Source: a virus | Lineage: Duplodnaviria; Heunggongvirae; Uroviricota; Caudoviricetes | Reading direction: 5' to 3' (one strand) | DNA: 32,320 bases | IMG/VR virus record: IMGVR_UViG_3300044557_000292 | Coordinates: 387,388 to 419,707 of that record | Shown: piece after piece, positions 1,306-31,809 of the stretch | How the letters are laid out: the number at the start of each line of letters is the position of its first letter | Position numbering within the stretch: the first letter of the stretch is position 1 | The notes under the pieces: model-generated | Databases searched by the model: none | What the model saw: the letters and a program-made list of their open reading frames with translations, nothing else | What the model was told of the DNA's origin: nothing | Made by a program: the position numbers and the translations under genes

Positions 1306-1333
1306 AGGTTCAACCCCGCAACGCGAAGACTCA
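1306..1333 (-). repeat. Solitary degenerate CRISPR repeat (array-type)
   Basis: AGGTTCAACCCCGCAACGCG matches 19 of the first 20 nt of the array repeat AGGTTCAACCCCGCAATGCG. The GGGG stem arm is lost (GAAG). Confidence 0.65.
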
Positions 1334-1375
1334 AGGCAACACGCGCGCCATGAGAACAACAAGCTGCGTGTCTTG

Positions 1376-1384
1376 TGTTATAAT
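1376..1384 (+). promoter_or_regulatory. Extended -10 promoter TGTTATAAT
   Basis: Perfect TGnTATAAT 24 nt upstream of the ORF at 1409. The same motif occurs at 9894-9902 (-) and 30531-30539 (+). Confidence 0.65.
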
Positions 1385-1408
1385 GAAATTGTTCTCAATC
1401 ATATGTGA

Positions 1409-1723
1409 ATGGAGTTTACCGTGATTACACTGCTTACCGCAATCCAGGTCGTCCTCATCTCGGTATTGTCGGGATTGTCGATCTTCCTCTTCCGTGGAAC
1501 TAGGAATGCCATCAAGTTCCATGACGTGAGAGTGTCGATTGGAATTGGCGCGTTATTCACCATCACGTTCGCCGTCTTCGTCTTAGCCACCTCACGCATT
1601 CTGAGCAGCCAGTACGGATGGATCATTGTGCTCAGCGGATTAATTGTAGGATTCGTATTCTTCCTCTCCATGGTCTCAATTGTCCACGATTACCTCGTGA
1701 GTCATAAGATCATTGCTGAGTAA
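1409..1723 (+). CDS. Small membrane protein (about 3 TM helices)
   Basis: 104 aa with three hydrophobic stretches, directly downstream of the promoter. Confidence 0.65.
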   Translation: MEFTVITLLTAIQVVLISVLSGLSIFLFRGTRNAIKFHDVRVSIGIGALFTITFAVFVLATSRILSSQYGWIIVLSGLIVGFVFFLSMVSIVHDYLVSHKIIAE

Positions 1724-1762
1724 TCGTCTGCAATGATCTGAAAGGCCTCAAGCGGGAAAGGA

Positions 1763-2209
1763 TTGGATCTTATGAACATCGTTTTTGATCGAACACTCAT
1801 CATATCAAGTGGAGATGATCATCCTCCCATTCCGGGGATTAGAATCATGTCCACAGGATCATTCATGGGCGTCCGTTACGTTATAGCAGAATCTCCGCTC
1901 ACCGGGCCGCATAACCCGAATGGGTACGTTAGGCTACCTGACGGTCATCCGTGGAGTCATAAAGATCCATCTGATATTGAGGTTGACGTTCACGGGGGAA
2001 TCACGTACGGCCCTGTGGAAGGATGGATAGGATTCGATACGGCTCATTGGAGTGACGATATGGGGGCTCTGGATCCTAGGAATCATCATAATCCTATTGA
2101 TGATTTGTTTCCTTATATCGGACCGGATCCATCCCTGAATCAATGGAATGAGGACAAAGTGAGAGATGAGGTTAAGCATCTCATCACGCAGATCGTCTAT
2201 TACGAGTGA
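1763..2209 (+). CDS. Conserved phage-type hypothetical protein
   Basis: Contains NGYV..P..HPW..DVHGGITY..WIGFDTAH, a pattern typical of a common phage hypothetical family. ATG at 1772 after AAAGGA is the likelier start. Confidence 0.7.
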   Translation: MDLMNIVFDRTLIISSGDDHPPIPGIRIMSTGSFMGVRYVIAESPLTGPHNPNGYVRLPDGHPWSHKDPSDIEVDVHGGITYGPVEGWIGFDTAHWSDDMGALDPRNHHNPIDDLFPYIGPDPSLNQWNEDKVRDEVKHLITQIVYYE

Positions 2210-2298
2210 TCTTACTGTTAGCATGAATTCAGATTTGCTCAATCTGAATTGATATTTTATAGTCATTCCTTGGAAACTATATAGGAGGGTTAGAAGAC

Positions 2299-2973
2299 AT
2301 GAGCAATCAACAGGAGGATAATGGAAGGGTCACCATCCTGATCGACTTTGATGGCGTGCTGAACGCTTTCCCTGACGATAAGTCCATGCGGAGGGGAGGA
2401 TTCTCTGATACGGTGTCAAAATGGAGGGATGATAATCCGCGCAAGAAGCTCTACGCTCCAGACCATGCGTTCAAGCCCGCCAGGAAGGCCATCATCCACT
2501 TCGGAGACGCCAGGGCGAGGATAAGATGGTCCGGGGAGCTTGTCACCGAGCTGCTTGGATTAGACGCTGATTGGAGGTGGCTGTCCACATGGCAGCCGTT
2601 CATCGAGTCAGACGTGAACCCAGCGCTCGGCCTCAATGGTAATCCAAAGGTGACGAACGCTCAATGGTATCGTTACAGTCCGTTCGGATCTACTCCACTC
2701 CACGGTAAGGAAGACTACGTGGGCAAGTGGATTGTTGAGCATCCTGGAGATCCAGTGATCTGGGTTGATGATGAGGATGCTGACGCGCACGCGTGGAATA
2801 GGATCAAGCAGAGGTTCGGTGAAGACTATCCCATACTAGTGGTGAATCCTAACAGTGAGATTGGTATCAGTCGACCGCAACTAGAACTCATGAAGAGCTT
2901 TACCATTAACCAAGATCCCGGGTTCACGAGTGAGGCTTGGCTCGACTGGGATGGAGCTCATCTGGGATTCTGA
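2299..2973 (+). CDS. HAD-superfamily phosphatase (Swiss-Army-Knife RNA-repair-like)
   Basis: Motif I ILIDFDGVLN and C-terminal VIWVDDED. GGAGG RBS. Confidence 0.75.
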   Translation: MSNQQEDNGRVTILIDFDGVLNAFPDDKSMRRGGFSDTVSKWRDDNPRKKLYAPDHAFKPARKAIIHFGDARARIRWSGELVTELLGLDADWRWLSTWQPFIESDVNPALGLNGNPKVTNAQWYRYSPFGSTPLHGKEDYVGKWIVEHPGDPVIWVDDEDADAHAWNRIKQRFGEDYPILVVNPNSEIGISRPQLELMKSFTINQDPGFTSEAWLDWDGAHLGF

Positions 2974-3013
2974 TAAGCATCATTTCCGTAAGAACCTTAA
3001 AGGTAGGAATCAG

Positions 3014-4087
3014 CTACTCGCCAGCCTTTGACCCCCGAACTTGAAACTCACTGATGAACCTCTTCCACTGTCCCGTGCGATCATCATACCTCACGCGATT
3101 ACCATTAGACGTAATGAACTCCCCCGGCTTGTCAGAATCCTCACGCCATCCCCGCTGATCCATATCGGGATAGTACGATGAGGGCTTGCTGAGATCCATA
3201 TGAGATCGCAATACTCTCACCCCGTTGACCTTCTCACGATTCCAATTGGAATCAATGAATGATGACGGGCGCTCGGACTGGTGATCTGATGGTATCTGGT
3301 TATGACTGCTGGTAAGATGCTCTAGCCGTAACGCCTTCTTGTAATCGTCAGCATTGATCCTAGCACTCTTCAATGAGTCCTTAATATAGTGATCATCGCT
3401 CTTAGATGCATCCATAATGATCTTCTTATAGACAAGATTAGCATGATCAATATCATCAGCAATCATTGATGCGTCATCACCGGTAAGTCCATGCTGCTCA
3501 ACGTAATGCGACCCGCTCTCATAGAAGTCGGCGGATGAAGCCCACTGGACGATCTCCCGCTTCAACTGCGTTCTATCATCTTCCTCATCTTCTTCTACAG
3601 GAGCAGTTGTGTTGAAACGACCCCACACCTTCTTCATATTGTCTACTGATCCGAGACCATTCTCGCTATCCATGATCGTTTCGAGCTCACGTGGAGCTCC
3701 ATTCTCTGACATGAATTTCCTATACTCTTCATTCATGCGTTGCTTTCCATGATCCGGGTCTTCTGGACTATATCCCATAGCTCGAAACTCATATGCCTTC
3801 TCAGCAAGATTCTGATAATCGTCCTCGGTTATCTTATGCCCTAATTCTGCCTTTTCCTGCAATGATCTCAACGAGACGCCGCCCCGCGCCTCCTGTGCGC
3901 ATCTATTCCAAATCTCGGCGGACTCATAATCCGCGAAGTCGCGGTGAACCTCATCACCGCCAACCGGGCAAGCCCTCTTCTCCGCATGGCATGGTCTCAT
4001 GTAAGCATGACCATTCCTATTCATAGACATATGACAGCGGATCAGATACCTCCTGAGATACATCTTCATTAAAGATTTACTTGACAA
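3014..4087 (-). CDS. Hypothetical protein with N-terminal C-x-A-x4-CP-x6-H module
   Basis: 357-aa ORF containing RCHMSMNRNGHAYMRPCHAEKRACPVGGDEVH. The true start is uncertain. Confidence 0.7.
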   Translation of the reverse strand: MSSKSLMKMYLRRYLIRCHMSMNRNGHAYMRPCHAEKRACPVGGDEVHRDFADYESAEIWNRCAQEARGGVSLRSLQEKAELGHKITEDDYQNLAEKAYEFRAMGYSPEDPDHGKQRMNEEYRKFMSENGAPRELETIMDSENGLGSVDNMKKVWGRFNTTAPVEEDEEDDRTQLKREIVQWASSADFYESGSHYVEQHGLTGDDASMIADDIDHANLVYKKIIMDASKSDDHYIKDSLKSARINADDYKKALRLEHLTSSHNQIPSDHQSERPSSFIDSNWNREKVNGVRVLRSHMDLSKPSSYYPDMDQRGWREDSDKPGEFITSNGNRVRYDDRTGQWKRFISEFQVRGSKAGE

Positions 4088-4164
4088 AATCTATCAATGG
4101 TAAGATATTTGTTCAGATTAGAAGAGATTTAATAGAACTGTTAACTATCATATACTTGATTCTT

Positions 4165-4914
4165 TTATCGTCGTGCGTGTCGGTACTCATCTGTACCCTG
4201 CATGATAGCCGTGAGCATGATGCCTGCAGCTCCAGCGATGGCTGCTGAGGACAGAGTCGACTTCCTCATGACCGCACTCTTCATCTCATTATTGAACTGT
4301 TCAGTCTTACTGGGATTCCCAGGTAGCTCGACGTTCTCAAGACCACCACTGGATGCCGTCAGGTATACTTTCCCATCATTTGACCTAACATGATAGACGA
4401 TATCCTCAGTCCCGGTCTTTAGCCTGTTCTGGCTATGGACCGTGACCTTCTTACCGTCTGGGGGCTTAACCGTGTTCTCATACCCGGTCTTCTTCTGCTG
4501 GACGCGATGAGAGAATACTCTTCCCTTCATGATGATCGTGTGCTTAGCGGTCTCATTATAGGAAGACGGTGTAGACGCGGCTTGGACGATCTCAACTGGT
4601 TGACTGACCTCGGTAGTGTTGACTGCGTTCACGAGTGATCCACCCAGGAGACCAGCTACGGCAAGACCAACACCCGCAACGGCCATGGTCTTCAGACTGT
4701 AATTCTCCCCTACCGAGAATGATTTCTTAAGATCCTTCAACTTACTCAAGATTGGCTGGTGACGCCTGTAGTATCGTCTGGACTCCTTCTCCGCGGCGAT
4801 ATACGCTAGGGCGAGATTATCATAATGCTTACTCTTGAATGGGCATTGACCCTTCTCCGCCCTGCACTCGCCAACGATTCCATTAGGAGAAATGTGGTAT
4901 AACGGTTTGTTCAT
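4165..4914 (-). CDS. Membrane protein with N-terminal Cys/His module and two TM segments
   Basis: Begins LYHISPNGIVGECRAEKGQCPFKSKH. Hydrophobic helices near residues 78-98 and at the C-terminus. Confidence 0.75.
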   Translation of the reverse strand: MNKPLYHISPNGIVGECRAEKGQCPFKSKHYDNLALAYIAAEKESRRYYRRHQPILSKLKDLKKSFSVGENYSLKTMAVAGVGLAVAGLLGGSLVNAVNTTEVSQPVEIVQAASTPSSYNETAKHTIIMKGRVFSHRVQQKKTGYENTVKPPDGKKVTVHSQNRLKTGTEDIVYHVRSNDGKVYLTASSGGLENVELPGNPSKTEQFNNEMKSAVMRKSTLSSAAIAGAAGIMLTAIMQGTDEYRHARR

Positions 4915-5047
4915 ATCAGATCCTTAAGCTCCCATTCATCTAATATTCCACATGAGAATGGAATTACTAATTATTACGCATTTGTGCATGTTAGTTAACT
5001 TTCACATACGATCTAACTATCTTTAGATTAGAGGAATGACCGTTAAT

Positions 5048-5440
5048 CTACTTAGTGTTCGGCTTGATCTTCGTGAGAGTAAGACTCATGATGAGGGATG
5101 CTACGTAATCCCTGATCTCGTTAGCGGTAGCATCAGTGTCCCCCAGTATCGTGGACAGCGTCCTCACGGCGACGGCCCTCACGTCATCGCTATCATCAAG
5201 ACCGAGATCGGACAGCGACCTCCGCCATCCTGTGGCCATGTTGAGCAGCTTGATCTTATCATTCCTTGACGCGGCCTTGCCCAACTGGGTGAGCCGTTTC
5301 CTCACCGAGTTCAGATAATCGTCCGTAAGAGACCCATCACCGTTATGATCTTCCGGCCTATCGTGGAAAAGATTGCTGTCATTGTCTTCACTACTATCAT
5401 CACTCATAAGCATAAGATATTCGTCTGCGAGCAGATCCAA
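5048..5440 (-). CDS. Hypothetical helical protein
   Basis: 130-aa ORF co-oriented with its neighbours. TTG start is uncertain. Confidence 0.5.
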   Translation of the reverse strand: MDLLADEYLMLMSDDSSEDNDSNLFHDRPEDHNGDGSLTDDYLNSVRKRLTQLGKAASRNDKIKLLNMATGWRRSLSDLGLDDSDDVRAVAVRTLSTILGDTDATANEIRDYVASLIMSLTLTKIKPNTK

Positions 5441-5462
5441 TACTCAAGCATTTGTGATCAAA

Positions 5463-5518
5463 CGAACTTGAGCTCACTGATGAGCCCCTTCCATTGACCA
5501 GTACGATCATCGTCCTCA
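5463..5518 (-). pseudogene. Frameshifted relic of the C-terminus of ORF 3014-4087
   Basis: 48/58 identity to 3036-3093 with two 1-nt deletions. Still encodes DDRTGQWKGLISE versus DDRTGQWKRFISE. Confidence 0.5.
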
Positions 5519-8500
5519 TGATCGTTTGACCAACTGCGAGAGCGACGATCGCATTTTTGAAGATATCCTCACGCTAGACGTGATAGCGTCATCTCTTACT
5601 GACGCCTTCATACTGCCGTCCATGATTGACCTCACGTCAGCGTCAAGCGCTTCCTCCCTGAACAATCCCATGTCATTGACCAATCGTCGACCTGCTTCTC
5701 TCCCTCCCCACGTGTCAAATATCGAGTGGAATCCACTAGTGCTAATCATCATGCTCTTGTACAGTCCGACCACGATGCTATCATCTTTGAGAGCATCATC
5801 TATCCTCGATTCAACCGTGTGGTACTGCGGTGTAAGCTCATATCCACGTCCGCGGAGCATGTTCATCAACGGCCGTATGACCTGTGCTGGTTTGACTCCA
5901 TCGGAAAGGCCGGGTATCACGTCATCATGATTGTTGGCAGAAACCAACCCCAGGGTGACGAGATCCCTATTCCTCATGATGATGCCCCTCATAGCGTCCA
6001 CGTCACCGCTAGTGACCCTATGGGCTTTCCTGTGAATGATGCCAGACTCGGATAGATCGCTGATAATAGAACTGTTCAGAGATGACACGTCTCCAGACTT
6101 GAGGGCAGACGCCACAATGCGACCCTCCTGTCTGATCTTCTCCAGCTCAAGCGCGTTAGCGTGATTGTTGACCACGTTCTGCGCTATCAGCCAGCTATCG
6201 TCATCTTGCCTATTAGATGAAGATCCACTCCCCCTCTTCTTTGATATAGCCGAGGCCTTCTCGTTCACGTATGACCTCAGCATGGACATCTTCTCCCTCT
6301 GTGATGCATCCCTGTACCCAGTGAAACCGGAATTCGTCTCCTTCCTCATAGCCTGATCAGCACTGTCTAGAATCGATGCCGTCACAAGATCCTCAGTGCT
6401 AGTGATCGATCCAGTGGAGAGGTCAGACGCTAGTCGTGAGCCGATCACCGAACCATTCTCATCATACATCTTAACCGTGGTGTCATCTGGCTCGATCCTC
6501 ATCCCCTTCAGGGTCTTGGCCGTAACGCTCCTCTCGAATCTTGTCACGCCGTACAGTGTAGACAGAGTGAGTCCAGGATGCAGCTCTTGATCGTTGCCGT
6601 CGATAGCCCGTGGAATGATCACGTGGCCAGTTACCTTACCAGGATCTTTAGGGTCAATCCGGGACGCTCTTCCAATAGCCTGGGTGATGGCTCGCTCTGA
6701 TGTCTTCCCCTTGTCACCAATGACCACGGTGTCGATCGTATCCACGGACACGCCCTCGCTCAGGATGTCCACGTTGGCCATAATGTTCTTATGCGGATCC
6801 CACCCCCTCGTATTCCTACGAGCCCTCGTGAAGAACTTGCCGATCTTATCAGGTTTACGCTCCCCCTCGGTTGACTCTGAGGTCACTGAGGTGACGTTCG
6901 CGTTCATGGCGAGCAGGTGCAGCCTGGCTGCCCTCCTCCTACCCGGGTCACTGGAATCCCTGTCGATCATGGCCTGCCTGTCCGTGATATCACCAGACAT
7001 GCTCATGACCACATTCTTGAAATGATCCCTGAAATCGTTTGACCTCCTGATTCCACCACTGCCACCTCCGCAGTACGCTAGAACATTATGGCTGGGATTC
7101 ACTCCATCATCTTGATCTGACACTAGAGCGTTAGCCGTGGAGACTATGCTAGCATACGTGTCCACATCCATTCCACGTCTATGAGGGCTATACGCCTCAT
7201 TAGCCGCACGTGGATCCCTATCTGGCGCAATATAATCCCCATTATCATCAACGAGCCCAGATTCCAATTGTCCTCCCGGCTTCTTACTCCCGCCACCGAT
7301 CCTCACCGGAATCATCTGGTAGTCAGCGCCTGCGAGATCATGATGGTCAACGGCTTCATTCTTCGATATGAACCCGCTGACGCGCCCAACCACGGCTGAA
7401 TCAGTGGAGTACACGACCATCCTGGCGCGATCATCATCATCCATCTCTAGCGCCCTTCTCTTAAGATCATCAATGGCCGTATCTTGACTCTTCACGTCAG
7501 GCGGCTGATCACTTGTGGACTCCTGGATGACGGGGGTTGCTGTCATGTAGAGTCGATGAGACGCGAGCATTGATCCTGGTATCCTGTTATCAAAGCTCCT
7601 GTAGCTCTGGACGCCCTCGTCAACCGGATCATTAACAGCGTCACCATCGTCAACCGCATCCTCATCATCGGCAGGACCGCTCGACCCGGTGGTCTTACTA
7701 GGAGCATTCCTCTGACCTAGAATATTATGGGCTTCATCATTGATGAGCAGGACAGCCTCCGCGTTCAGATGGTCTTCCTCAGCGATCTGATTCTGTATCT
7801 GCGCAATGCGACCAGAACTACGGTACGTTGACACGAGTATGATCCTCCGACCATGCATCATGTCATCAAGCATCCTCTCCTTGATGATGCTATTCGATAT
7901 CTTACCGTTCTTATCCTGGACTTCCTTAGATGACGTGTCAATCTCGATCACGTCCACATCGTGCCCGCCATCCCTTATAGCGGCCGACTTCTCGTAATCC
8001 TTACTCGTACTATCGGCTAGAGCGACGGAACTCGTGAGCACAATACCAATACCGGTGGAGCCCGGCTCGCCCATCATCCTAGCCATGAGCTGCCTGCCCA
8101 TGTACGACTTACCGGTTCCACACGCGGCCACAAGCTGCGTCTTCCCCTCTTCATGGAGAGCGTTGGCCGTCTCATCCATTGGTCCAGGCTGGATGTCCTT
8201 TGGAGGCCATTCGCCCCTAGGAGTCATGTGACCATCGCCATCATCTTCCATACCAAGATTACCGTAATAGTAACCATTTCTGAACATGGAGCCATCCCAC
8301 GATCCGTCTTGAGGATCTTTGTCATTGACCCCGCGCTTACGCAATGTTTGATCGCGACCTACTCTAGAATAGGCGGCCTCATTCCTCTCCTCGGCCATCC
8401 CCCTGGTAAGAAGCTCATGGGAGGAATGGGGGCACCTGTACTTGCCGACGTTCTCTGGCCTAGCATTGCACGGACTCCAGGTGCCGTCGGGATTCTCACC

Positions 8501-8623
8501 ATACCTCTGCTTCACGTCTTCCCCTCGCTGTACGGGATGACGCTCGTCATGACTAGAAGAATGTTCTCGTAACGTTGCCTCAACCTTCTTCATAACAGCC
8601 ATGACCTCCTCAATACTGAGCAC
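5516..8623 (-). CDS. SF2 DEAD/DEAH-box helicase-like ATPase (ResIII / Type ISP-like helicase core) with N-terminal Cys/His module
   Basis: Motifs AACGTGKS (I), NDEAH (II), MTATP (III), ILSEGV (V) and QAIGRASR (VI). No methyltransferase or nuclease motif was recognised. Confidence 0.85.
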   Translation of the reverse strand: MLSIEEVMAVMKKVEATLREHSSSHDERHPVQRGEDVKQRYGENPDGTWSPCNARPENVGKYRCPHSSHELLTRGMAEERNEAAYSRVGRDQTLRKRGVNDKDPQDGSWDGSMFRNGYYYGNLGMEDDGDGHMTPRGEWPPKDIQPGPMDETANALHEEGKTQLVAACGTGKSYMGRQLMARMMGEPGSTGIGIVLTSSVALADSTSKDYEKSAAIRDGGHDVDVIEIDTSSKEVQDKNGKISNSIIKERMLDDMMHGRRIILVSTYRSSGRIAQIQNQIAEEDHLNAEAVLLINDEAHNILGQRNAPSKTTGSSGPADDEDAVDDGDAVNDPVDEGVQSYRSFDNRIPGSMLASHRLYMTATPVIQESTSDQPPDVKSQDTAIDDLKRRALEMDDDDRARMVVYSTDSAVVGRVSGFISKNEAVDHHDLAGADYQMIPVRIGGGSKKPGGQLESGLVDDNGDYIAPDRDPRAANEAYSPHRRGMDVDTYASIVSTANALVSDQDDGVNPSHNVLAYCGGGSGGIRRSNDFRDHFKNVVMSMSGDITDRQAMIDRDSSDPGRRRAARLHLLAMNANVTSVTSESTEGERKPDKIGKFFTRARRNTRGWDPHKNIMANVDILSEGVSVDTIDTVVIGDKGKTSERAITQAIGRASRIDPKDPGKVTGHVIIPRAIDGNDQELHPGLTLSTLYGVTRFERSVTAKTLKGMRIEPDDTTVKMYDENGSVIGSRLASDLSTGSITSTEDLVTASILDSADQAMRKETNSGFTGYRDASQREKMSMLRSYVNEKASAISKKRGSGSSSNRQDDDSWLIAQNVVNNHANALELEKIRQEGRIVASALKSGDVSSLNSSIISDLSESGIIHRKAHRVTSGDVDAMRGIIMRNRDLVTLGLVSANNHDDVIPGLSDGVKPAQVIRPLMNMLRGRGYELTPQYHTVESRIDDALKDDSIVVGLYKSMMISTSGFHSIFDTWGGREAGRRLVNDMGLFREEALDADVRSIMDGSMKASVRDDAITSSVRISSKMRSSLSQLVKRS

Positions 8624-8675
8624 AAGCTCCTAATCCGACTCGACAGCATCTGATAATGCCATCGAATCTGGCATG

Positions 8676-8720
8676 GTAACGCGCATTGACATATTCTCAT
8701 TTTATGTCAATGCACGTTAC
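8676..8720. terminator. Long hairpin (terminator or operator)
   Basis: GTAACGCGCATTGACATA / TATGTCAATGCACGTTAC gives a 17/18 bp stem with a 9-nt loop, between the DUF4238-like gene and the helicase. No U tract. Confidence 0.5.
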
Positions 8721-8759
8721 GACATACTAGAATCGTTACCGTCAGACTAAATCTATCAA

Positions 8760-9806
8760 CTATGATAGTGGAAGATCCTTCCTTGGAATCCACACGGGGG
8801 AGGACGGGGCCCACGGAACATCCTCCATATCCATGATGAGACCAGCATCCGTTCCATGGATGAGGTCAAACAGCACGTCATCATCTGGGAGCACAAGATA
8901 GGGAGGCCTCCAGGTGACCTGTGACCCGAACGCCTTGATGGCATCATATGGTCCACTCGCCCCATCAAGATCAAACTCCCCGCTAGAAGCAAGATACGCG
9001 ATCGGGTACGTCCAGTTCCATATCGCTCGCATGGGAAGCCATTCCGTCAGCCATCTCATGAACCCGTGGTCCACGTTCAGGGGAGCATAGTTGATCGCGT
9101 CATCCCTATTAGACGCGGTCACCTGGTGGGCTTGCTTCGATATGAGATTATTCGCTATGTGAGCATCCCTGCTCACGGACCTCAGGGTGAAGTTATCCCT
9201 GAACTGGATAAGCGTCTTACCATTCAAAGACGTATCGGGCCATGAGACCACGAGCATCGCGTTACTCGATATAGGGATGAGGAGTTTGTCATCATCAGCA
9301 TCCCACGCATACCCCGAGTCATTCAAGATGAAGTTCCTGTTCGTCCTCATGATAGCAATGCTAGCCGTGGAGAGAGCGGTCAGGGTGGCCGCGAAGATCA
9401 TGATTCTCGTCGCATCCGGATCTAGCTGATAGCAGCAACGATACCATTCCGTGCGTGAGAACTCGTAGTGGGCGAACCTGTCCCTGGCAACGAGCCCAGC
9501 TATATAGGGCTTGAGGGAGAACCAGTACGACTTACCGTTGATCGAGTTGCCACCAGCCCGTATCGTACCTATGACGTTAGATGCGAACCCCTCATAACCC
9601 CTCCAGGAGTCATCGAGATCCTTACCGTAGATGTTATTCTCCCAGTAGTACTTACCGCTAGCCCCGGAGTGAATGATCAGCCCGTCCATCGTGTTGATCC
9701 ATGCTGAGTTATCGTCATCATTGAACCCGCTGACGATGAACCTGGGCACAACGTGCTGTCGATTGCATACGGGAGTAATGACGCCGTGGCTCCTCTTTAT
9801 AGACAT
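8760..9806 (-). CDS. DUF4238-like protein
   Basis: N-terminal RQHVVPRFIVSGF resembles the HYVPxFYLxxF signature, and FILNDSG resembles FITSDxP. GGAGGTG RBS. Confidence 0.6.
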   Translation of the reverse strand: MSIKRSHGVITPVCNRQHVVPRFIVSGFNDDDNSAWINTMDGLIIHSGASGKYYWENNIYGKDLDDSWRGYEGFASNVIGTIRAGGNSINGKSYWFSLKPYIAGLVARDRFAHYEFSRTEWYRCCYQLDPDATRIMIFAATLTALSTASIAIMRTNRNFILNDSGYAWDADDDKLLIPISSNAMLVVSWPDTSLNGKTLIQFRDNFTLRSVSRDAHIANNLISKQAHQVTASNRDDAINYAPLNVDHGFMRWLTEWLPMRAIWNWTYPIAYLASSGEFDLDGASGPYDAIKAFGSQVTWRPPYLVLPDDDVLFDLIHGTDAGLIMDMEDVPWAPSSPVWIPRKDLPLS

Positions 9807-9843
9807 GTGAAGACACCTCCCATTATCCCTTAATCTATTCTAG

Positions 9844-9938
9844 GTAATGAACCCCGCATAAACGTGGAATACATATAATTGACAAACGATTTCATTATAA
9901 CATAAGGTGGGATGAACCCCCGCATAAACGGGGAGTAC
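9844..9938 (-). CRISPR. Degenerate type I-E-like mini-array (2 repeats, one 36-nt spacer)
   Basis: Plus strand: GTAATGAACCCCGCATAAACGTGGAATAC (9844-9872), spacer 9873-9908, GGGATGAACCCCCGCATAAACGGGGAGTAC (9909-9938). The reverse complements start GTATTCC/GTACTCCCCG and have a CCCCG..CGGGG stem. Confidence 0.65.
9894..9902 (-). promoter_or_regulatory. Extended -10 promoter inside the mini-array spacer
   Basis: The reverse complement reads TGTTATAAT and points at the DUF4238-like gene. Confidence 0.6.
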
Positions 9939-10158
9939 ACTGGGAGCACGAGGAGATCCCAGTGTACTGAAATTATCAGTAATGCGCATCGAGCATGTTC
10001 TTCATTAAACAGTTATATAAAGTTGTACCACATCATATATTCGCCTTATCTGCGAATAGGAGTCGCAATGAGCATTACTGGCCATCATTGGCGTGTCGTG
10101 ATCTTATCCGGGTTATGATAATCACGTCAACAAAACGTGACAAGGAATAGGATTCATC

Positions 10159-10422
10159 ATGAGTGTAACGGTAAAGCCAAAGTCCTCCGCGAGAACGTAC
10201 ACGATCATCAAGATGCACCGTGGCCGCGTCTCAAAGCAAACGGGGACAATCCAGGAGCTTATCGAGTACTTCCATTACACCCTCGAATGCGGTAACGGTT
10301 GGAATCACAGCATCTCGCTCAACCCGCGCGGCGGGAGGGCGCTCGTGAACGCGCTTAACAAGTGCGTCCGCGAGCTGCAGGGCGGGTGCTTCAACCAGGA
10401 TCACTACGAGCTTGAATCTTGA
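10159..10422 (+). CDS. Small hypothetical protein
   Basis: 87 aa, with an AGGA RBS and GC-richer coding-like composition. Confidence 0.7.
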   Translation: MSVTVKPKSSARTYTIIKMHRGRVSKQTGTIQELIEYFHYTLECGNGWNHSISLNPRGGRALVNALNKCVRELQGGCFNQDHYELES

Positions 10423-10447
10423 TGATAGTAAAACCCTAGGATAGGAT

Positions 10448-10473
10448 AATCGCCCCGCGCCAGCGGGGCGATT
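10448..10473. terminator. Perfect 11-bp hairpin whose core equals a type I-E repeat stem-loop
   Basis: AATCGCCCCGC-GCCA-GCGGGGCGATT, 25 nt after the stop of 10159-10422. The core CCCCGCGCCAGCGGGG is the E. coli I-E repeat core. Confidence 0.55.
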
Positions 10474-10560
10474 CCAATTCGGGGCGGGGTGACGCGGGTT
10501 GCTAGGCTCGTGAGCGCCCATCACGCGGCAATCCCGTGGGGGTGACCCCAAGCACGCCCC

Positions 10561-10586
10561 AGACGCATTCCATGACCCTTAGACGC
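10561..10586 (+). repeat. Left arm of a 26/27-bp inverted repeat
   Basis: AGACGCATTCCATGAC-CCTTAGACGC versus the reverse complement of 11578-11604. Confidence 0.8.
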
Positions 10587-10674
10587 TCGATCTATCATGG
10601 CATGTGTTTTTTTACTCACCTGTGTTTCGGTGCGTTAGAGCGCATCCTCCGCGCTTCCATTCTGAACCGCTTGT

Positions 10675-11088
10675 TCAATGGAATAGAATCTTACGCACCT
10701 CGTCTACGCTCCCAGATGCTGCTGATAGTGCAACGCTCACGAGATCATCCACCGTGTACCCGCCGGTGGACAGCCCCTGGTACTCCATAAGAGTGAGCCC
10801 AGCCACGAGAGCAGTCCGCTTGTTACCGTCCGGATAGCAGTGTCCTGTGGCAATGCGCACCATGAGGTCGACGATCTGGTCTTCAGCATTCTCATACTCC
10901 CTCGAGGCGAAGACAGTATAGCAGACCGCGTTAATGCCGTCGATCGATCTACGTGGAGTCAGGTTGAGACCAGCGCTAGCAGACAGTGACCCGTCGTGGG
11001 CAGCAGTGATGATGCTCACAATGGAATCAAGATCGTCATTACCGTCCACAGATAGGGGTGCGATCGTCCTATCCAGCATTACTCTCAC
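10675..11088 (-). CDS. Doc-family (Fic/Doc) toxin
   Basis: HCYPDGNKRTA matches the Doc variant HxFx(D/N)GNKR of the Fic motif. 137 aa, typical Doc size. Confidence 0.85.
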   Translation of the reverse strand: MRVMLDRTIAPLSVDGNDDLDSIVSIITAAHDGSLSASAGLNLTPRRSIDGINAVCYTVFASREYENAEDQIVDLMVRIATGHCYPDGNKRTALVAGLTLMEYQGLSTGGYTVDDLVSVALSAASGSVDEVRKILFH

Positions 11089-16809: not shown

Positions 16810-17790
16810 TCACACGGATGGAGATGGTATCCTCCTAGACAAGTCCTCAAAGACTGCCGTGGACTCACGAATCTCTCGCGCGTCCTGCGAGTATGATTCA
16901 AGCTTATCATCAAGGCTACTCAGGACCGTCACCATATGATCCAGCTCGCGGTTGACCACGTCGCTATCCTGCCGCTCACTGTTATCCTTCTTGAGAAGAC
17001 TCCTCGCATGATTCACCACGTCGCCATCCAGGCCAACACCCACAAGCGCGGCCTTCTCCACGACGCGATTCAAGAGATCATTCAACCGCTCGTAGGTATA
17101 GTTAATACTGTCAACGGTATCCCTCGGGGAGATTCCGGGGTCCATGAGCTCTCGGGCGATCGTCTCGTTAACAATCCTAATAATCTCCTCCTGCTCGGCC
17201 TTTGAATCCCTCACACCATCGGCATCAGTGACTACGGACACTACAGCGCCTTCGAGCACGTGGTTACTCAACCCGGTAATACGGAATGCTTGGTTACAAG
17301 AATCAAGATGAAGATTCTTGTTACACCAATTGTTAAGATCATCAGGACCATAATTAAATCCAATGATCGCGTCACGCCCCCTAACGCGCATCCTCAACAC
17401 GGTTCCAGCTTTCAATGGATTAATGGGCCCCGGGCCATCCAGTAATGACTTCTCCCCCATAACAGATCTCGAGATATTCATAACCATTGTTGCGCTTGAG
17501 AGACCTAACACCAAGAGAGCAATCGGGGCTACAAAGACCGCCGCGATGGTACCGAGCAGGTAAGGAGTTCTCACCGCAAACAGGAAATTAGTGAGGAGCA
17601 GTCCAGCTGAGGCTAGGACGACGGGGAGCTGGCAGATGAACGCGAGCTTGGACTTGCGCTCGCTATACCATCGATACCACCTGTGATGAAGCTTCCTGCC
17701 AGTCGATCTAACCCACTTGTCCTCGCGATCGATTCTAGTAGATATGATGCGCGCTTCTTCCACCCCATGTGGATTATTCATCGTAATCAT
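16810..17790 (-). CDS. Hypothetical membrane protein (2 TM, helical C-terminus)
   Basis: 326 aa with a hydrophobic hairpin at about residues 48-105. Confidence 0.6.
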   Translation of the reverse strand: MITMNNPHGVEEARIISTRIDREDKWVRSTGRKLHHRWYRWYSERKSKLAFICQLPVVLASAGLLLTNFLFAVRTPYLLGTIAAVFVAPIALLVLGLSSATMVMNISRSVMGEKSLLDGPGPINPLKAGTVLRMRVRGRDAIIGFNYGPDDLNNWCNKNLHLDSCNQAFRITGLSNHVLEGAVVSVVTDADGVRDSKAEQEEIIRIVNETIARELMDPGISPRDTVDSINYTYERLNDLLNRVVEKAALVGVGLDGDVVNHARSLLKKDNSERQDSDVVNRELDHMVTVLSSLDDKLESYSQDAREIRESTAVFEDLSRRIPSPSV

Positions 17791-23492: not shown

Positions 23493-23536
23493 GCATCCTC
23501 CTTATAGAAGATCCCCACGATCATCATTTCTTTCAT

Positions 23537-23920
23537 CTAGATCAGGAATGGGTTCACTGGCGCGTCATACGCCCCACCCATACCCGTGGCGTCACGCCCC
23601 GACGTGACCTTGATTGGCTCGGCCTCAGGATTCGACAGGACGTCCTTAAGACCGTCCTCCCTGATCTTCTCCCTTGACTCATAATCGTACAGGGTCTTCC
23701 TCGCCCTGTCAAGGAACCTATCGACCTCCCGGGCGTCATACCATCGCCCACTACTCTTAGCTCTGAAGGTAACCGTCTTCACCTCATCAGAAGTCACGTC
23801 TACCCCATCGGTAGGCTCAGGGCTATCATGCTTCCCGTCTTCAATCCTAGCAGCATTCCTCTTATCGTCATCCTCATCATGAGGACGATCAGGATCGCCT
23901 TCCTTCTTGAACCAGCTCAT
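23537..23920 (-). CDS. DivIVA-domain protein
   Basis: VTSDEVKTVTFR..GRWYDAREVDRFLDR matches the DivIVA domain motif. GGAGG RBS. Confidence 0.7.
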   Translation of the reverse strand: MSWFKKEGDPDRPHDEDDDKRNAARIEDGKHDSPEPTDGVDVTSDEVKTVTFRAKSSGRWYDAREVDRFLDRARKTLYDYESREKIREDGLKDVLSNPEAEPIKVTSGRDATGMGGAYDAPVNPFLI

Positions 23921-23922
23921 GC

Positions 23923-26062: not shown

Positions 26063-26133
26063 CCAAATAACCGGCAGTTACCACATCATAGGATTTGCAT
26101 TACCGGCGACTATACGGGTAATATGGTCTTCAC

Positions 26134-26652
26134 GTGTTTGTTAACGAAGGTCTTATCAGGAAGGAAGATCACATCATGGCGCATCATGGTAACAGTAATC
26201 AGTATGGAAGAGCAATCGTAGGCGTGCTAGTGGCTGCTGGCATATCAACCGTGCTCGCAGGAATTGGATGGAGCATCACTAAGATCATTGACGGGAAGTA
26301 CGCGGCGCTTGACGGTGGTCTCACCCACGGGAGCGAAGACGACTGGTATGAGGACGTGCAAGATGATGCGGGGTACGATTACTGGGTGACCATGTGGAAT
26401 GAGATCAACAAGCGCTTGCTGAGCGATAAGATCTTTCCAATCGACCTCATGTTAAGAAATGGTGGACAGTCACGCGAGCTGACCCATCATCTGCTCGACA
26501 CGTATTACGAGAGTGGCCATGAGGACAATATGGAATGGTTGATCCTCCATGAGGATGAGATCGTACGATTCCTGAATGACATCAAACCGGATGGGAGCAT
26601 CGCTTTTGATCCAGAGCACAAAATGGTCATTAGGAGCAATGGGGGCCGCTAG
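26134..26652 (+). CDS. Hypothetical protein with N-terminal TM helix
   Basis: Likely start is ATG 26176 after AGGAAGG. Hydrophobic AIVGVLVAAGISTVLAGIGW. Confidence 0.6.
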   Translation: MFVNEGLIRKEDHIMAHHGNSNQYGRAIVGVLVAAGISTVLAGIGWSITKIIDGKYAALDGGLTHGSEDDWYEDVQDDAGYDYWVTMWNEINKRLLSDKIFPIDLMLRNGGQSRELTHHLLDTYYESGHEDNMEWLILHEDEIVRFLNDIKPDGSIAFDPEHKMVIRSNGGR

Positions 26653-26755
26653 GGGATTGCTAGAGAAGCTCAAATAACCTAGATCAGAACATATCTTGCC
26701 CATGTAAGATGAGTCAGCAGTCTCATGGGAGAATCGACGAATAGGCCAGCCCAGG

Positions 26756-28036: not shown

Positions 28037-28111
28037 AAGCAATATGGGAGTTGTAATGATGGTGTAGAAGCATTCTACTTGAAATGCGAGGAATGAAGGG
28101 AAGATGGAATC

Positions 28112-30445
28112 ATGAGAGACAATGATGCTACTAGCCGGGAGAAGAGCAAGTTCATCGAGTCCATCATAGCCGAATGGCAGAGGAGTAACCCAGCAGAGAA
28201 TCTTGAGGATCACGACATCCCCCTGCTCGTGTCAAGGCTACTGGTCGAGGCGTGCACTGACATTGTTCCTCAGATCATGCCCAACGATGCACCGGCAGAT
28301 GAAAGCGCGTCTAGCGTCATCCACTGGCTGTCTGAGAAGGAGAATCCTATCGTCGGCATACGCGGGACCGCCTATTCCGGTAGGCGGGTGGTCGTTGGAA
28401 TCATAGCATGGAGGTGCTTGCACGACGATCGTGTACCACGATACCTGATGGGCTGCCTCATGAGGACGCTGAGGCCAATCGTGTACAGTGACCCCATGTC
28501 AAGGGAGGCCATCGCGTGGCGGATCTGGCAGAGGGATTACGCCTTCGAAACGGTAGACCAGATCATCATCCACGTGAGGGGTGGAAGATTCGTTGAGGAT
28601 CTCCTCAGGGGCCCACGCCTCCTCGCCACCCCAATCATCGTTGAGGAGGAGACTGATGGGAATATAGAAACGATCCCCACAGCTACCCCATTCATAAGCT
28701 TGTGCAGTGAGTACACCTGGGGCTCTGTCAGCATAGCCATCAAGCCCAGGAGGAACATTAAAGACGTGGCCAACCTCATCTGGAGTGAGGCCATCGCCCC
28801 TAACGGGGAGAAGTACAGGAAGACTTACGGGTGGATCCCAACGAGGGCGGTCGTACGGGAGGCTGCAAGGATAGAATCCCTGACCGTAGATGGGAACATT
28901 GAAGACTATTGCACTAGTAGAGTCTTAACCATTCTTCACTCTGCCATGGACAAGTGGTTCACCCCGGGCTCTGGCCATTCTAAGCTCAGTGTCGGTGATC
29001 TTAGGAGTATAGCCCTCAAGGCATATGTGATACCAGAGATCAAAGATCCATCAGCAGGGCTCGTCCTGAGCGGGTATGACGAGAAGAATGACGACCCTCC
29101 TAGGCCATCAAGACCGTCACCAGCGAATATCCCAAACCACGATCCAGCACATGATCCTGACAAGAACGATCATTCCCACACGACCGGCCCAGGGCGCTAT
29201 GGAGATGGGCGATCCCACGTCAGGGGGTCAGCTAATGGTAAGACGCCAGGTGCAAGGGGTGGCCTGGACGGTGTCAGCAATGGTGGTGGCGCTTATAATC
29301 AGTATGATAATAAAACCCTCATCAAAATGCTGAATGCCGCATTGAAGAGCCCTGAAGATCATATTATGAATGATAGAATCCAGAACATCCTAAGCCAGCT
29401 GTCCTCGAACAAGAAGAGTGGCAGGGTGGATACCGAGACTGAGTCTGAGGAGGAGTCAAGGGATGATGACGCTGCGAGGTTCAAGTTCACGGACCGCGCT
29501 GATCTGCTCAACCAGCTGGAGGATCGCATCATAGGACAAGATGAAGCCCTCAAGCGCGTCGTGAGGCCGATCATGATGAGGAGGGCTGGTATTCGTGATC
29601 ATGACAGGCCGATCGCCGGTCTACTCCTGGCGGGACCGTCGGGCGTAGGTAAGACGGAAACAGCCCTCGCCCTCGCGGATGTGGTATACGGGTCAGAGGA
29701 TAGCCTCATCCGAATTGACTGTTCTAGCATGAAGAACGGCGAGATGTCCGTGTCATCACTCCTTGGATCTGGCAACGGGTACGTTGGGTCTAATCAGGGT
29801 GGGCGGCTCACGAACTGGGTGCGTGATCATAAGGCTGGGGTCATCGTGTTCGATGAGATCGAGAAGGCAAGCCCGGAGATATGGGATGCTGTACTCCTGC
29901 CAATGCTAGACTATGGAAAGATCACTGACGCTTCCAAGGGAACCCGCGATTGTTCTAACTGCATCATCATACTCACAAGCAACATCGGTACGGGCGGCAT
30001 CGGTAAGAACGGGATGAGGAGCGTTGGATTCGGTGGATTAGAATCCAGCATTGATGACGAGATGAAGATCCTCGAGAATGACGTGAGGAATGCCGTGGGT
30101 AAGACGTTCCGTCCAGAGCTTGTCGGCAGGTTGACTGACGTGATCGTGTACCGTCCACTCTCTAATGAAGACTACGCGAAGATCTTCATGGTCCAGTGGG
30201 TGAATAGGGCCGAGCAGTTGAATGGTCTCAACGTGCATGTCGATATTGACGATACCGTCCCCAGGTGGTTCGCATCCCACTGCCGTGAGGACGATCATGG
30301 AGTCAGGGTGCTCGGCAAGATGATCAACGATAAGATCATTGACCCGCTCACTGACATGATCGTGGGGACCGAGGAGCCGTTAGACGTCACCGTGTCGATT
30401 AGCGCTAATGGCGAGGTCAGCATTGAGGATAATCCAGACTTCTGA
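28112..30445 (+). CDS. ClpC-like AAA+ ATPase with degenerate D1 and intact D2
   Basis: D2 has GPSGVGKT, FDEIEKA, TSN, a VGF ClpP-docking loop, FRPELVGR and GVR. D1 aligns with ClpC, but Walker A reads GTAYSGRR and Walker B is lost. Confidence 0.85.
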   Translation: MRDNDATSREKSKFIESIIAEWQRSNPAENLEDHDIPLLVSRLLVEACTDIVPQIMPNDAPADESASSVIHWLSEKENPIVGIRGTAYSGRRVVVGIIAWRCLHDDRVPRYLMGCLMRTLRPIVYSDPMSREAIAWRIWQRDYAFETVDQIIIHVRGGRFVEDLLRGPRLLATPIIVEEETDGNIETIPTATPFISLCSEYTWGSVSIAIKPRRNIKDVANLIWSEAIAPNGEKYRKTYGWIPTRAVVREAARIESLTVDGNIEDYCTSRVLTILHSAMDKWFTPGSGHSKLSVGDLRSIALKAYVIPEIKDPSAGLVLSGYDEKNDDPPRPSRPSPANIPNHDPAHDPDKNDHSHTTGPGRYGDGRSHVRGSANGKTPGARGGLDGVSNGGGAYNQYDNKTLIKMLNAALKSPEDHIMNDRIQNILSQLSSNKKSGRVDTETESEEESRDDDAARFKFTDRADLLNQLEDRIIGQDEALKRVVRPIMMRRAGIRDHDRPIAGLLLAGPSGVGKTETALALADVVYGSEDSLIRIDCSSMKNGEMSVSSLLGSGNGYVGSNQGGRLTNWVRDHKAGVIVFDEIEKASPEIWDAVLLPMLDYGKITDASKGTRDCSNCIIILTSNIGTGGIGKNGMRSVGFGGLESSIDDEMKILENDVRNAVGKTFRPELVGRLTDVIVYRPLSNEDYAKIFMVQWVNRAEQLNGLNVHVDIDDTVPRWFASHCREDDHGVRVLGKMINDKIIDPLTDMIVGTEEPLDVTVSISANGEVSIEDNPDF

Positions 30446-30498
30446 TCAATAGTGATTCCTACCGGCATGTCTTGCACTCGATCCTGTACTCAAGATCA

Positions 30499-30527
30499 TT
30501 ATCCCACGTTTATGCGGTGCTCATCTC
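30499..30527 (+). repeat. Solitary degenerate CRISPR repeat (mini-array type)
   Basis: TTATCCCACGTTTATGCGGTGCTCATCTC is 23/29 identical to the reverse complement of 9844-9872, with a 14-nt identical core. Confidence 0.65.
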
Positions 30528-30530
30528 ACG

Positions 30531-30539
30531 TGTTATAAT
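30531..30539 (+). promoter_or_regulatory. Extended -10 promoter TGTTATAAT
   Basis: TGTTATAATGGAATCG, 3 nt after the solitary repeat and upstream of the ORF at 30592. Confidence 0.65.
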
Positions 30540-30564
30540 GGAATCGTAAGCGAGTGTTACCATC

Positions 30565-31011
30565 ATGGTAACCCATCGGAAAGGAATCGTCATGTCCAAG
30601 CAGGTCTTCAAGTTGAATCACGCGGGAGTGAATTACGGAGTGGAATCAAAGGTGTACAGGGTTGATAGGAATAGCCTGGAGGGTTTAGTCAATCTCATCA
30701 TTGATAGCCTCGATACCTCCCCATTCAATCCACGGCAGATGGAGTTCGAATCGTCCGTGTACAGTCTGGTGGTCATGTACTCGGAACAACTTGCTGCTGC
30801 TTCCGCTAATGACGAAGATGTTGTTTGGATTGACCCCCGGACGTTATCTATAGACATCGTCCATCGGTACGTCGCCAAGAATAATTTTGTTGATTATGGA
30901 TCCAAGAGGGATGACGCAGCATGGCTGTCTGCTTGGAATCAACACTGCAGGGAAGCATTGCCGTCAATCGTGGTCGCCTATGAGTACAACCTAGATCATA
31001 ACAACGATTAG
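30565..31011 (+). CDS. Hypothetical small acidic protein
   Basis: Likely start is ATG 30592 after AAAGGA (139 aa). Confidence 0.7.
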   Translation: MVTHRKGIVMSKQVFKLNHAGVNYGVESKVYRVDRNSLEGLVNLIIDSLDTSPFNPRQMEFESSVYSLVVMYSEQLAAASANDEDVVWIDPRTLSIDIVHRYVAKNNFVDYGSKRDDAAWLSAWNQHCREALPSIVVAYEYNLDHNND

Positions 31012-31038
31012 GGATGAACCCCGCATAGATGAAAATAT
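31011..31038 (-). repeat. Solitary degenerate CRISPR repeat (mini-array type)
   Basis: GGGATGAACCCCGCATAGATGAAAATAT. The first 17 nt match the 9844/9909 consensus. It overlaps the upstream stop codon. Confidence 0.65.
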
Positions 31039-31091
31039 GATATCATGGCATCATGGAAGCATACTGATAATCCACAGGAAAGAAACTCATC

Positions 31092-31661
31092 ATGGAACTC
31101 ATACCATGCATTCAGAACATGTTCACCATCAGTCATGGGAACCAGTATATGGCAGCGGGAATCATCGCCTGCGCGATATTCATCGTCCTCATTGTGGTTG
31201 TTCTTATCGTCATGCATGCACGAGGCAAAAGCGCCAACATCATCAACGGTATCGCCTTCATCCTCGGATCCATCAGTGCCATCATCATGATTGCATTGAT
31301 GTTTCAGTCATCATGGATAAGTCCAGCAGCAGACGTGGCGTGGAACGACTACACCAATGCAATAATCACGAAGAACATCGATAAGATAGAACGATCCTAC
31401 GGCATCACCGATCTTGAGTTCAATGGCGGCAACAGCAAGGACATACTTCTGACCAGTTATAACTTCGATATGAACAAGCTCTCCGATAAGGACAAGGAAA
31501 TCACCAAGGCCTACCGTGATAATGAGCGTAAGGCCGGAGTCCAGATGCAGACCATCACCTTCACACAGGACGGTAAGAGCTACTCGGGAACCATCAAGGA
31601 GAACCTCGGTACCATCACCATATACCGGGACGGCACCATGATATCACCTATACGGCAATAA
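31092..31661 (+). CDS. Membrane protein (2 TM plus soluble C-terminal domain)
   Basis: 189 aa with two strong hydrophobic helices. Confidence 0.7.
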   Translation: MELIPCIQNMFTISHGNQYMAAGIIACAIFIVLIVVVLIVMHARGKSANIINGIAFILGSISAIIMIALMFQSSWISPAADVAWNDYTNAIITKNIDKIERSYGITDLEFNGGNSKDILLTSYNFDMNKLSDKDKEITKAYRDNERKAGVQMQTITFTQDGKSYSGTIKENLGTITIYRDGTMISPIRQ

Positions 31662-31782
31662 ACAGACCGCTCATGCCAGTCCATGTTTGCCGGCCGCCAC
31701 GTTTCGACCATATGAGTGCAAACACAGTTCATGATACATCATGATGATAAGTCAAACCCACAATGACCTGGCCAGCCCCTAT

Positions 31783-31809
31783 GATGAACCTGCAGAAATC
31801 GTGAAATAC
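31783..31809 (-). repeat. Highly degenerate CRISPR repeat on the trailer side of the array
   Basis: GATGAACCTGCAGAAATCGTGAAATAC versus GATGAACCCCGCATAAACGTGGAATAC: 19/27 ungapped, about 23/28 with two gaps. Confidence 0.4.

Follow-up and report, generated by a model that had tools for sequence, protein, structure and literature searches.

The window analysed here, a stretch of 32,320 nt that makes up the terminal 32 kb of a 419.7-kb giant-phage record, carries CRISPR-type repeats scattered between protein-coding genes and in part only a few nucleotides from promoters, which raises the question of whether these repeats control the neighboring genes or are left over from the arrays of the phage itself. 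The copies look like scars and by-products of array turnover, more than like a new control system. On balance they are probably remnants and mini-arrays of the phage's own type I-E arrays, situated at the recombining junctions of promoter-bounded cassettes, and those sense copies that are intact are likely to be cut by Cas6e. The locus is a case of how the arrays of a cas-carrying giant phage may break up, take in genes and strand repeat fragments in front of other genes. Positions are those of the window, unless given as genome positions.

CRISPR-Cas system and repeat copies

The type I-E cas operon of the record is complete and, like the three arrays, lies on the minus strand. The eight cas genes (cas3-cse1-cse2-cas7-cas5-cas6e-cas1-cas2, genome positions 244537-253508) all score above the Pfam cut-offs. 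The operon adjoins array B, and the leaders of the three arrays are mutually homologous. Because the cas operon and all three leaders are on the minus strand, this is also the functional sense of the repeats, and the repeat orientation assumed in the earlier note was reversed. The distal part of array A occupies positions 31921-32320 (minus strand; seven repeats of 28 nt each with a period of 62 nt) and runs on at genome positions 1-1146 to a total of 26 repeats, followed by the leader at genome positions 1147-1340. In array C a pilin-like gene sits between two perfect repeats. A scan of the whole window at the Rfam gathering thresholds gave no match.

Among the dispersed copies that had been proposed for the window, those at 1306, 9843, 9909, 30499 and 31011 were recovered, whereas those at 1236 (P 0.025 per 45-nt window), 18814 (an 11-nt match, P 0.007) and 31783 (covariance model E 10) do not exceed chance. 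The best preserved copy is R1 (9909-9938, minus strand), a family-2 repeat with a 1-nt insertion, a covariance model E-value of 1.4e-6 and an intact hairpin of -12.3 kcal/mol, located 6 nt upstream of a class-1 promoter. That promoter (9886-9902) is held in a 36-nt 'spacer' (9873-9908, minus strand), which is followed by a second family-2 repeat, R2 (9842-9872, minus strand; covariance model E 0.025), with a weakened stem of -4.6 kcal/mol. R2 lies within the predicted 5' UTR of a DUF4238-like gene (8760-9806). A 12-bp hairpin (9934-9968) and a conserved stretch upstream of R1 make up the segment 9934-10019 (minus strand), which has 78% identity to a paralogous module at genome positions 264151-264250.

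The copy at 1306-1333 (minus strand; covariance model E 0.02, nhmmer E 0.011) is a truncated family-1 repeat upstream of nrdF (minus strand) and agrees fully with the repeat of arrays B and C over 19-22 nt at its 3' side; the remainder is truncated and the 5' half pairs only via two G-U pairs. It is 43 nt from a divergent class-1 promoter (1376-1392, plus strand) that drives a 104-aa ORF (1409-1723). The copy at 30499-30527 (plus strand) has 22/29 identity to the family-2 consensus, where about 0.013 hits of such identity are expected genome-wide; it has a 14-nt stretch in common with the copy at 9843 and lies 3 nt upstream of the class-1 extended -10 promoter TGTTATAATGGAATCGT (30531-30547, plus strand), which drives a 139-aa ORFan (30592-31011). 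The stop codon of this ORFan is abutted by a degenerate repeat of family-2 type (31011-31038, minus strand), with 17 nt at its 3' side identical to the 3' half of family 2. The six-bp GC stem with a 3-4-nt loop and an 8-nt 3' handle is intact in R1, weakened in R2 and in the 1306 copy, and lost in the 30499 and 31011 copies. Many of the stems are degraded, in keeping with an origin as array remnants. The copies at 30499, 31011 and 1306 are probably relics.

The two repeat families named in the earlier note intergrade, with hybrids at genome positions 242130, 331006 and 65637. Arrays B and C carry the family-2 variant at their old (distal) ends too, and a private C-to-T change in the stem is common to R1, R2 and the 30499 relic. 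The dispersed copies are scattered across about 135 kb of accessory region. Two repeat-like units around a spacer-like sequence occur at 9842-9938 and at genome positions 343157-343248 and 264086-264172. The modules at 264 kb and 397 kb have about 100 nt plus R1 in common and are paralogous mosaics.

Promoters and transcribed repeats

The class-1 promoter is a conserved promoter of the extended -10 type, TGTTAYAATRGAATCGT, a type that is missed by a simple sigma-70 scan. Its 23 copies are concentrated from 380 kb across the origin to 95 kb. All three TGTTATAATG sites of the window lie near a repeat copy (43, 6 and 3 nt away), as had been noticed before, and the association extends to the whole genome, with 5 of 11 repeat loci at most 60 nt from a TGTTAYAATRGAATCGT promoter against 0.48 expected (P <2e-4). 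Repeat-bearing promoters nevertheless account for only 5/23 of the class, and R1 and other hairpins stand directly upstream of the promoter in a subset of the 23 copies.

The repeat is separated from the TG of the extended -10 element by 6 nt at R1 and by 3 nt at the 30499 relic, so that the repeat DNA might serve as an operator that covers the -35 region and controls the promoter class when a protein or Cascade binds to it. The probability of this is close to negligible: the other 18/23 promoters are free of repeats, the distance between repeat and promoter differs among copies (1, 3 and 6 nt), the copies vary in sequence with one of them heavily degraded, and extended -10 promoters do not require a -35 box. 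Nor does any array-encoded crRNA match a repeat or promoter region. The dedicated regulon with repeat-derived operators envisaged in the earlier note is left without support also by orthologous promoters without repeats in relatives, by the loss of the stem in the very copy that covers a -35 position (30499) and by the absence of any guide-target relation.

A hairpin in sense on a transcribed strand is present in R1 (9909-9938) and in the copies at genome positions 65496, 65637, 264086 and 17723, and intact hairpins of several copies have predicted energies of -8.6 to -13.2 kcal/mol. R2 (9842) and the copies at genome positions 65637 and 264086 lie 6-21 nt past a -10 box and would therefore be at the extreme 5' end of the mRNA in three genes, which hints at use rather than pure decay. 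Under the favored reading, sense copies that keep their hairpin would, once transcribed, probably be bound and cut by the Cas6e of the phage, and the cut would trim the mRNA leader; such cutting would be incidental or, at most, have been co-opted recently and within this lineage.

A stronger version, in which sense repeats in 5' leaders are functional Cas6e sites that trim, stabilize or repress accessory mRNAs, implies a CRISPR-derived post-transcriptional regulon timed by cas expression. It is unlikely, even though the phage encodes a Cas6e with a conserved C-terminal glycine-rich loop, sense repeats at five genes lie 6-21 nt past the -10 box and 12-70 nt before the start codon, several of the hairpins are intact, and 11/14 dispersed copies are in crRNA sense upstream of a co-oriented gene, an orientation bias that also counts against the array-remnant reading. 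Leaders of orthologous genes in relatives are free of repeats: the orthologues of a PIF1-like helicase gene in three relatives have the promoter and no repeats, and so does the orthologue of the DUF4238-like gene in strain L172, although this strain ends in an array whose repeat is identical to that of the phage. Stems are weakened or lost in R2 and several other copies, and in a comparison of the genome with strain L051 substitutions are as frequent in the repeats as in their flanks, one of them breaking a stem. The genes concerned have no function in common.

Mini-arrays, known viral repeats and searches outside the genome

The arrangement repeat-36 nt-repeat at 9842-9938 fits a mini-array, and others occur at genome positions 343157/343218 and 314272/314335. 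These might yield crRNA-like regulators resembling CreR, CreA or Cracr, or Racr-type RNA decoys, that divert or sequester Cascade proteins belonging to the phage, its host or rival phages; the 36-nt promoter-bearing 'spacer', for example, might guide Cascade to repress the promoter class. R1 is preceded on its own strand by a sigma-70-like promoter at a distance of about 180 nt, and both solitary repeats downstream of promoters and crRNA-like arrays are known from viruses. This alternative is very unlikely on the following grounds. The six PAM-proximal positions of the pseudo-spacer match other promoters at 1-3/6 only. The 12-nt seeds of seven pseudo-spacers have only chance-level matches in the genome, no PAM-proximal match to a cas or toxin promoter reached the minimum of 9-11 nt that characterizes CreR, CreA and Cracr RNAs, and 0/76 array spacers match the genome of the phage. 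A decoy would, moreover, impair the I-E system of the phage itself, and no Acr or Aca families were recognized near the repeats.

The viral solitary repeat units described as Racr RNA anti-CRISPRs (Camara-Wilpert et al. 2023, PMC10651486) are likewise single CRISPR-type repeats in viral intergenic DNA, often just downstream of a promoter, so that such a placement is not without precedent. R2 (9842) and the copies at genome positions 65637 and 264086 are solitary intergenic repeats with a promoter at most 250 bp upstream, as in Racr. In contrast to Racr units, which lack cas genes and arrays of their own and mimic host repeats, the phage itself encodes a cas operon and carries arrays of this repeat family; its repeats are followed by protein-coding genes rather than by the end of a small RNA, many of its copies have no hairpin, and no host array of the type turned up in the scans described below. 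Solitary phage repeats are not automatically anti-CRISPR decoys. The crRNA-like regulators CreR and CreA and the viral Cracr arrays (PMC10120712; bioRxiv 10.1101/2024.10.29.618823) resemble the mini-arrays in the order degenerate repeat, short spacer-like sequence, degenerate repeat. They differ in that the present copies lie away from the cas genes, no promoter of the genome is matched by the PAM-proximal part of a pseudo-spacer, and two of the 'spacers' double as the promoter of the gene downstream.

Phage and plasmid collections contained no related record. In IMG/VR, scans for the junction of repeat and promoter, for the promoter by itself and for the family-2 repeat produced at most single matches at chance level, and a protein-based scan gave one distant locus only. 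Metagenome scans with the junction pattern and the family-2 repeat gave no matches, and the family-2 repeat was absent from the metagenome and viral contigs scanned. A scan of genome contigs for the repeat core yielded only family-1-like arrays among the matches listed, the closest of these being from a Lachnospiraceae MAG; no array with family-2 repeats was among them, nor was a host system to mimic identified.

Cassette junctions in related strains

Arrays and gene cassettes interleave in this phage, with genes occupying spacer slots, and close strains differ by entire cassettes exactly at promoter and repeat junctions. In strain L178 (about 95% identical) array A consists of two repeats and lies immediately next to the 139-aa gene, in the order terminal repeat, one spacer, first repeat and leader. 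Since the terminal repeat of L178 directly follows the same gene, the copy at 31011 is the terminal repeat of array A, parted from it by an inserted gene. The segment between this repeat and the rest of array A (31039-31920, plus strand, about 880 nt) bears a 189-aa ORF (31092-31661) without a Pfam family and is a gene in a spacer slot. At the 30499 junction (30488-30528), L178 has a promoter and a 173-aa gene in the slot of the relic; the relic is absent from both L177 and L178, and L177 also lacks the same flank. Compared with L172, the block from nrdF to the DUF4238-like gene has the opposite orientation and is flanked by two promoter copies in inverted arrangement.

These strain comparisons are consistent with the earlier suggestion that the copies are recombination sites or relics. 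The copies would derive from terminal repeats, collapsed mini-arrays and truncated single repeats of the phage's own arrays, set in a hyperplastic accessory region whose gene cassettes are bounded by the class-1 promoter. Recombination between promoters and between repeats would shuffle the cassettes and leave repeats adjoining promoters. The analogy is with the PeSL promoter/stem-loop cassettes of T4-type phages (Arbiol et al. 2010, PMC2839356; PMC4122927), which likewise pair a stem-loop with a strong promoter, recur in ORFan-rich hyperplastic regions and bound insertions, deletions and replacements between close strains. Such boundaries are found here in the replacement at 30488-30528 relative to L178 and in the L172 inversion between two promoter copies. 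Unlike in PeSL, the stem-loop is a CRISPR repeat and not a U-tract terminator (no U-tract follows the repeat hairpins), and it is present on a fifth of the promoters only.

The copies resemble ordinary CRISPR terminal repeats and collapsed mini-arrays in that their sequences grade from the array consensus, are of the variant type seen distally in arrays B and C and, at 31011, are orthologous to the terminal repeat of a sister strain. Unlike at ordinary CRISPR loci, the copies extend over about 135 kb, protein genes lie between repeats, and promoters are only a few nucleotides away. Arrays and cas genes are also known from other huge phages (Al-Shayeb et al. 2020, PMC7162821); here the focus is on array fragments interleaved with accessory genes.

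The arrays might go further and serve as cassette platforms, with promoter-plus-gene units entering and leaving spacer slots through repeat recombination or the Cas1-Cas2 integrase and Cas6e cutting the transcripts at the flanking repeats. This is distinctly unlikely; if true, the array machinery would double as an integron-like system of mRNA processing and gene capture. The window offers concrete sites for two questions, namely whether a phage Cas6e cuts phage mRNAs and whether CRISPR repeats are recombination points of accessory genes.

Further observations count against the copies being remnants of array turnover. The 1306 copy retains pairing by way of its two G-U pairs, both paralogous mini-arrays (397 kb and 264 kb) keep the layout repeat-promoter-repeat despite differing promoters, and the modules are invariant among the available strains. 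The invariance is explained by mosaic identity, and no signal of selection was found among strains as similar to the window as L051 and L174-L176; the 6% divergence of L176 is confined to the body of the DUF4238 gene. Contigs of four DNA runs over positions 800-11000 contained no structural variant of the modules. The joints 9872/9955 and 1325/9955 were considered as variants and rejected on account of their short sides and of cross-mapping of the paralogous 264-kb module and the array repeats. A low-depth contig joins 1039 to 9767 on opposite strands, which fits an L172-like gene order.

CRISPR arrays, cas operon and repeat variants

The window (G000:C1:387388-419707) forms the final 32 kb of a single 419,707-bp virus record with a completeness rating of 100% and direct terminal repeats. 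Both record ends fall within array A (genome 419309-419707 and 1-1146). Array B is located at genome 242130-244385 and array C at 331006-331224 and 332162-333492, interrupted by the gene for a 272-aa pilin-like protein; a two-repeat array (314272/314335) lies among tRNA genes. A complete type I-E operon (cas3, cse1, cse2, cas7, cas5, cas6e, cas1, cas2) adjoins array B outside the window, on the minus strand at genome 244537-253508, about 78 kb from array C; all 8 cas genes exceeded the Pfam cut-offs. On the scale of the genome the arrays are therefore not cas-less. Arrays A, B and C carry a homologous leader on the high-coordinate side and degenerate repeats on the low-coordinate side. Given these leader positions and the strand of the operon, the minus strand carries the repeats in crRNA sense, the reverse of the orientation in the earlier note. 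In this sense the repeat reads GTATTCCCCGC-GTT/ATT-GCGGGG-TTGAACC(Y), a canonical I-E layout.

Repeat sites in the window were checked with an nhmmer profile of repeat variants, with a covariance model whose filters were off, and with a local-alignment null. R1 (9909-9938, covariance model E 1.4e-6) has an intact hairpin, and the stem of R2 (9842-9872, E 0.025) is weakened by an A-G mismatch. The truncated repeat at 1306-1333 (E 0.02) equals the array B/C repeats over its 3' 19-22 nt and is truncated beyond; its remaining stem pairs via two G-U pairs. The stem is lost in the relic at 30499-30527 (22/29 identical, about 0.013 expected genome-wide) and in the copy at 31011-31038 (17 nt identical). 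These proposed sites were above chance, whereas 1236, 18814 and 31783 gave no more than the chance level for a 32-kb search.

The second repeat family proposed earlier exists as a variant, with loop YTAK and handle TTCATCC, and not as a system of its own. Arrays B and C have this variant in their distal repeats, and hybrids at genome 242130, 331006 and 65637 combine a family-1 (array-type) loop with a family-2 handle. A private C-to-T stem change is common to R1, R2 and the 30499 relic. The family-2 repeat was not found in any metagenome or viral contig scanned, and the genome-contig scan yielded only family-1-like arrays among the matches listed.

Mini-arrays and their promoters

The recurring unit is a mini-array, not a lone repeat. 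On the minus strand at window 9938-9842 the order is R1, 36 nt with a class-1 promoter (described below), then R2; a leader of 36 nt that includes a ribosome-binding site connects R2 to a DUF4238-like gene. At genome 264172-264086 this layout recurs in front of a PIF1-like helicase gene, with another promoter (TGGTACTATAAA), and about 100 nt upstream, hairpin and R1 included, are common to the 397-kb and 264-kb modules (78% identity). Two repeats 111 nt apart, with a class-1 promoter between them, precede a 58-aa ORF (genome 65496-65662), and two repeats plus 35 nt precede a kinase gene (343248-343157). In the latter, degenerate mini-array (343136-343248, stretch L018), the kinase start codon lies about 20 nt past the repeat and a ribosome-binding site is not obvious. 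A single repeat with a full leader is present at genome 17723; the stretch 17640-17749 (L001) reads as a full CRISPR leader and then one intact repeat, an 'empty' array.

Arrays B and C likewise have promoter-like boxes and gene starts no more than a few nt beyond their distal repeats, and 11 of 14 dispersed copies are in sense and precede a gene of the same orientation. Intact sense copies would be expected, from established I-E biology, to be cut by Cas6e; a leader regulon based on Cas6e is regarded as unlikely.

The class-1 promoter, in extended form TGTTAYAATRGAATCGT(AAG), is of the extended -10 type without a -35 box and therefore escapes a simple sigma-70 scan. It has 8 exact copies outside the arrays, and 23 when up to 2 mismatches are allowed. 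Most stand 35-60 nt ahead of a start codon, and they cluster in the mixed-strand stretch of small ORFans that runs from 380 kb across the origin to 95 kb; the motif is also present in the relative L172. The repeat-promoter link drawn in the earlier note held genome-wide from the side of the repeats: 5 of 11 repeat loci outside arrays lie within 60 nt of a class-1 promoter, against 0.48 expected under random intergenic placement (P < 2e-4), and 5 of 9 against 0.70 expected (P = 0.001) when only the accessory region is counted. From the side of the promoters, only 5 of 23 have a repeat within 70 nt. Paralogy among part of the copies means that these events are not fully independent. A role of the repeats as DNA operators is considered highly improbable. 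Four copies of an approximately 70-nt element (...CCTAGGATATGCTTCC..TGTTACACTAGAAGCGTTGCTAT...) with a promoter-like score, at genome 34848, 205138, 205430 and 380761, seem to form a conserved noncoding family of their own.

A function as crRNA-like or decoy RNAs is rather improbable. None of the 76 array spacers matched the genome at up to 7 mismatches, and for seven pseudo-spacers the 12-nt PAM-proximal seed gave chance-level matches only. The promoter-bearing pseudo-spacer matches other promoters over the shared 17-nt core, but of its first six positions just 1-3 agree with them. No Acr or Aca families were recognised beside the repeats, and a decoy RNA would hit the phage's own CRISPR system too. 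Viral solitary repeats just downstream of promoters (PMC10651486), crRNA-like regulators and viral Cracr arrays are already described; on the features tested the copies do not belong to these families, as the phage carries cas genes and arrays of its own and the seeds found no match.

Junctions compared with relatives and strains

The most telling comparative case is the strain L178, 94-95% identical to this genome. Its order is a ClpC-like gene, promoter, extra 173-aa gene, promoter, 139-aa gene, family-2-like degenerate repeat, one spacer, family-1 repeat and array A leader (91% identical to genome 1120-1966). By this comparison the window 31011 copy is the terminal repeat of array A. An approximately 880-nt segment with a plus-strand 189-aa ORFan (window 31039-31920) separates that copy from the array A body, where L178 has one spacer only, in parallel to the pilin-like gene within array C. 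Window 30488-30528, with the 30499 relic, occupies the position of a promoter and gene in L178; in L177 (82% identical) the flank and promoter are present, with only four nt of the relic.

The nrdF-to-DUF4238 block (window 82-9806) is inverted relative to L172, between two inverted promoter copies. In L172 the helicase gene lies on the opposite side of nrdF. The L172 DUF4238 orthologue has a class-1-like promoter upstream and lacks R1 and R2, although its contig terminates in an array of the identical family-1 repeat. Helicase orthologues of relatives at 57-70% protein identity have upstream gaps of 55-65 nt, compared with 288 nt in this genome; these gaps of the relatives contain a similar -10 box but lack a repeat.

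Genes and repeats are interleaved, cassettes differ between strains at the junctions, orthologous promoters occur without repeats, and many stems have decayed. The dispersed copies are, by a modest preference, taken to be array-derived remnants and mini-arrays at promoter-bounded, recombining cassette junctions. Recombination at promoter and repeat copies would have generated the pattern, and compaction of short intergenic regions would account for the tight repeat-promoter spacing. In operation, PeSL promoter/stem-loop cassettes, known from T4-type phages (PMC2839356), come closest; in this phage the stem-loop is a CRISPR repeat.

The near-identical strains L051 and L174-L176 have modules that are unchanged, or substitutions as frequent in repeats as in flanks, one of which breaks a repeat stem. 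Opposite window 8600-9600, the DUF4238-like gene body of L176 is about 12% divergent with identical flanks; this variant is a mosaic allele replacement. No selection signal on the modules is readable in these strains, because substitutions are equal in repeats and flanks and the L176 divergence is confined to the gene body.

Other repeated elements were observed. An intergenic repeat about 100 nt long is dispersed in at least 16 copies that are 75-89% identical (window 10561-10658; genome 35040, 381292, 376868, 53561, 16076, 63515, 91452 and others; L178:2950-3060), one of them upstream of the array A leader. An 82-nt stretch at window 10079-10160 is 95% identical, in inverted orientation, to genome 16566-16647; with an 87-aa ORF beside each, the two look like paralogous small-gene cassettes.
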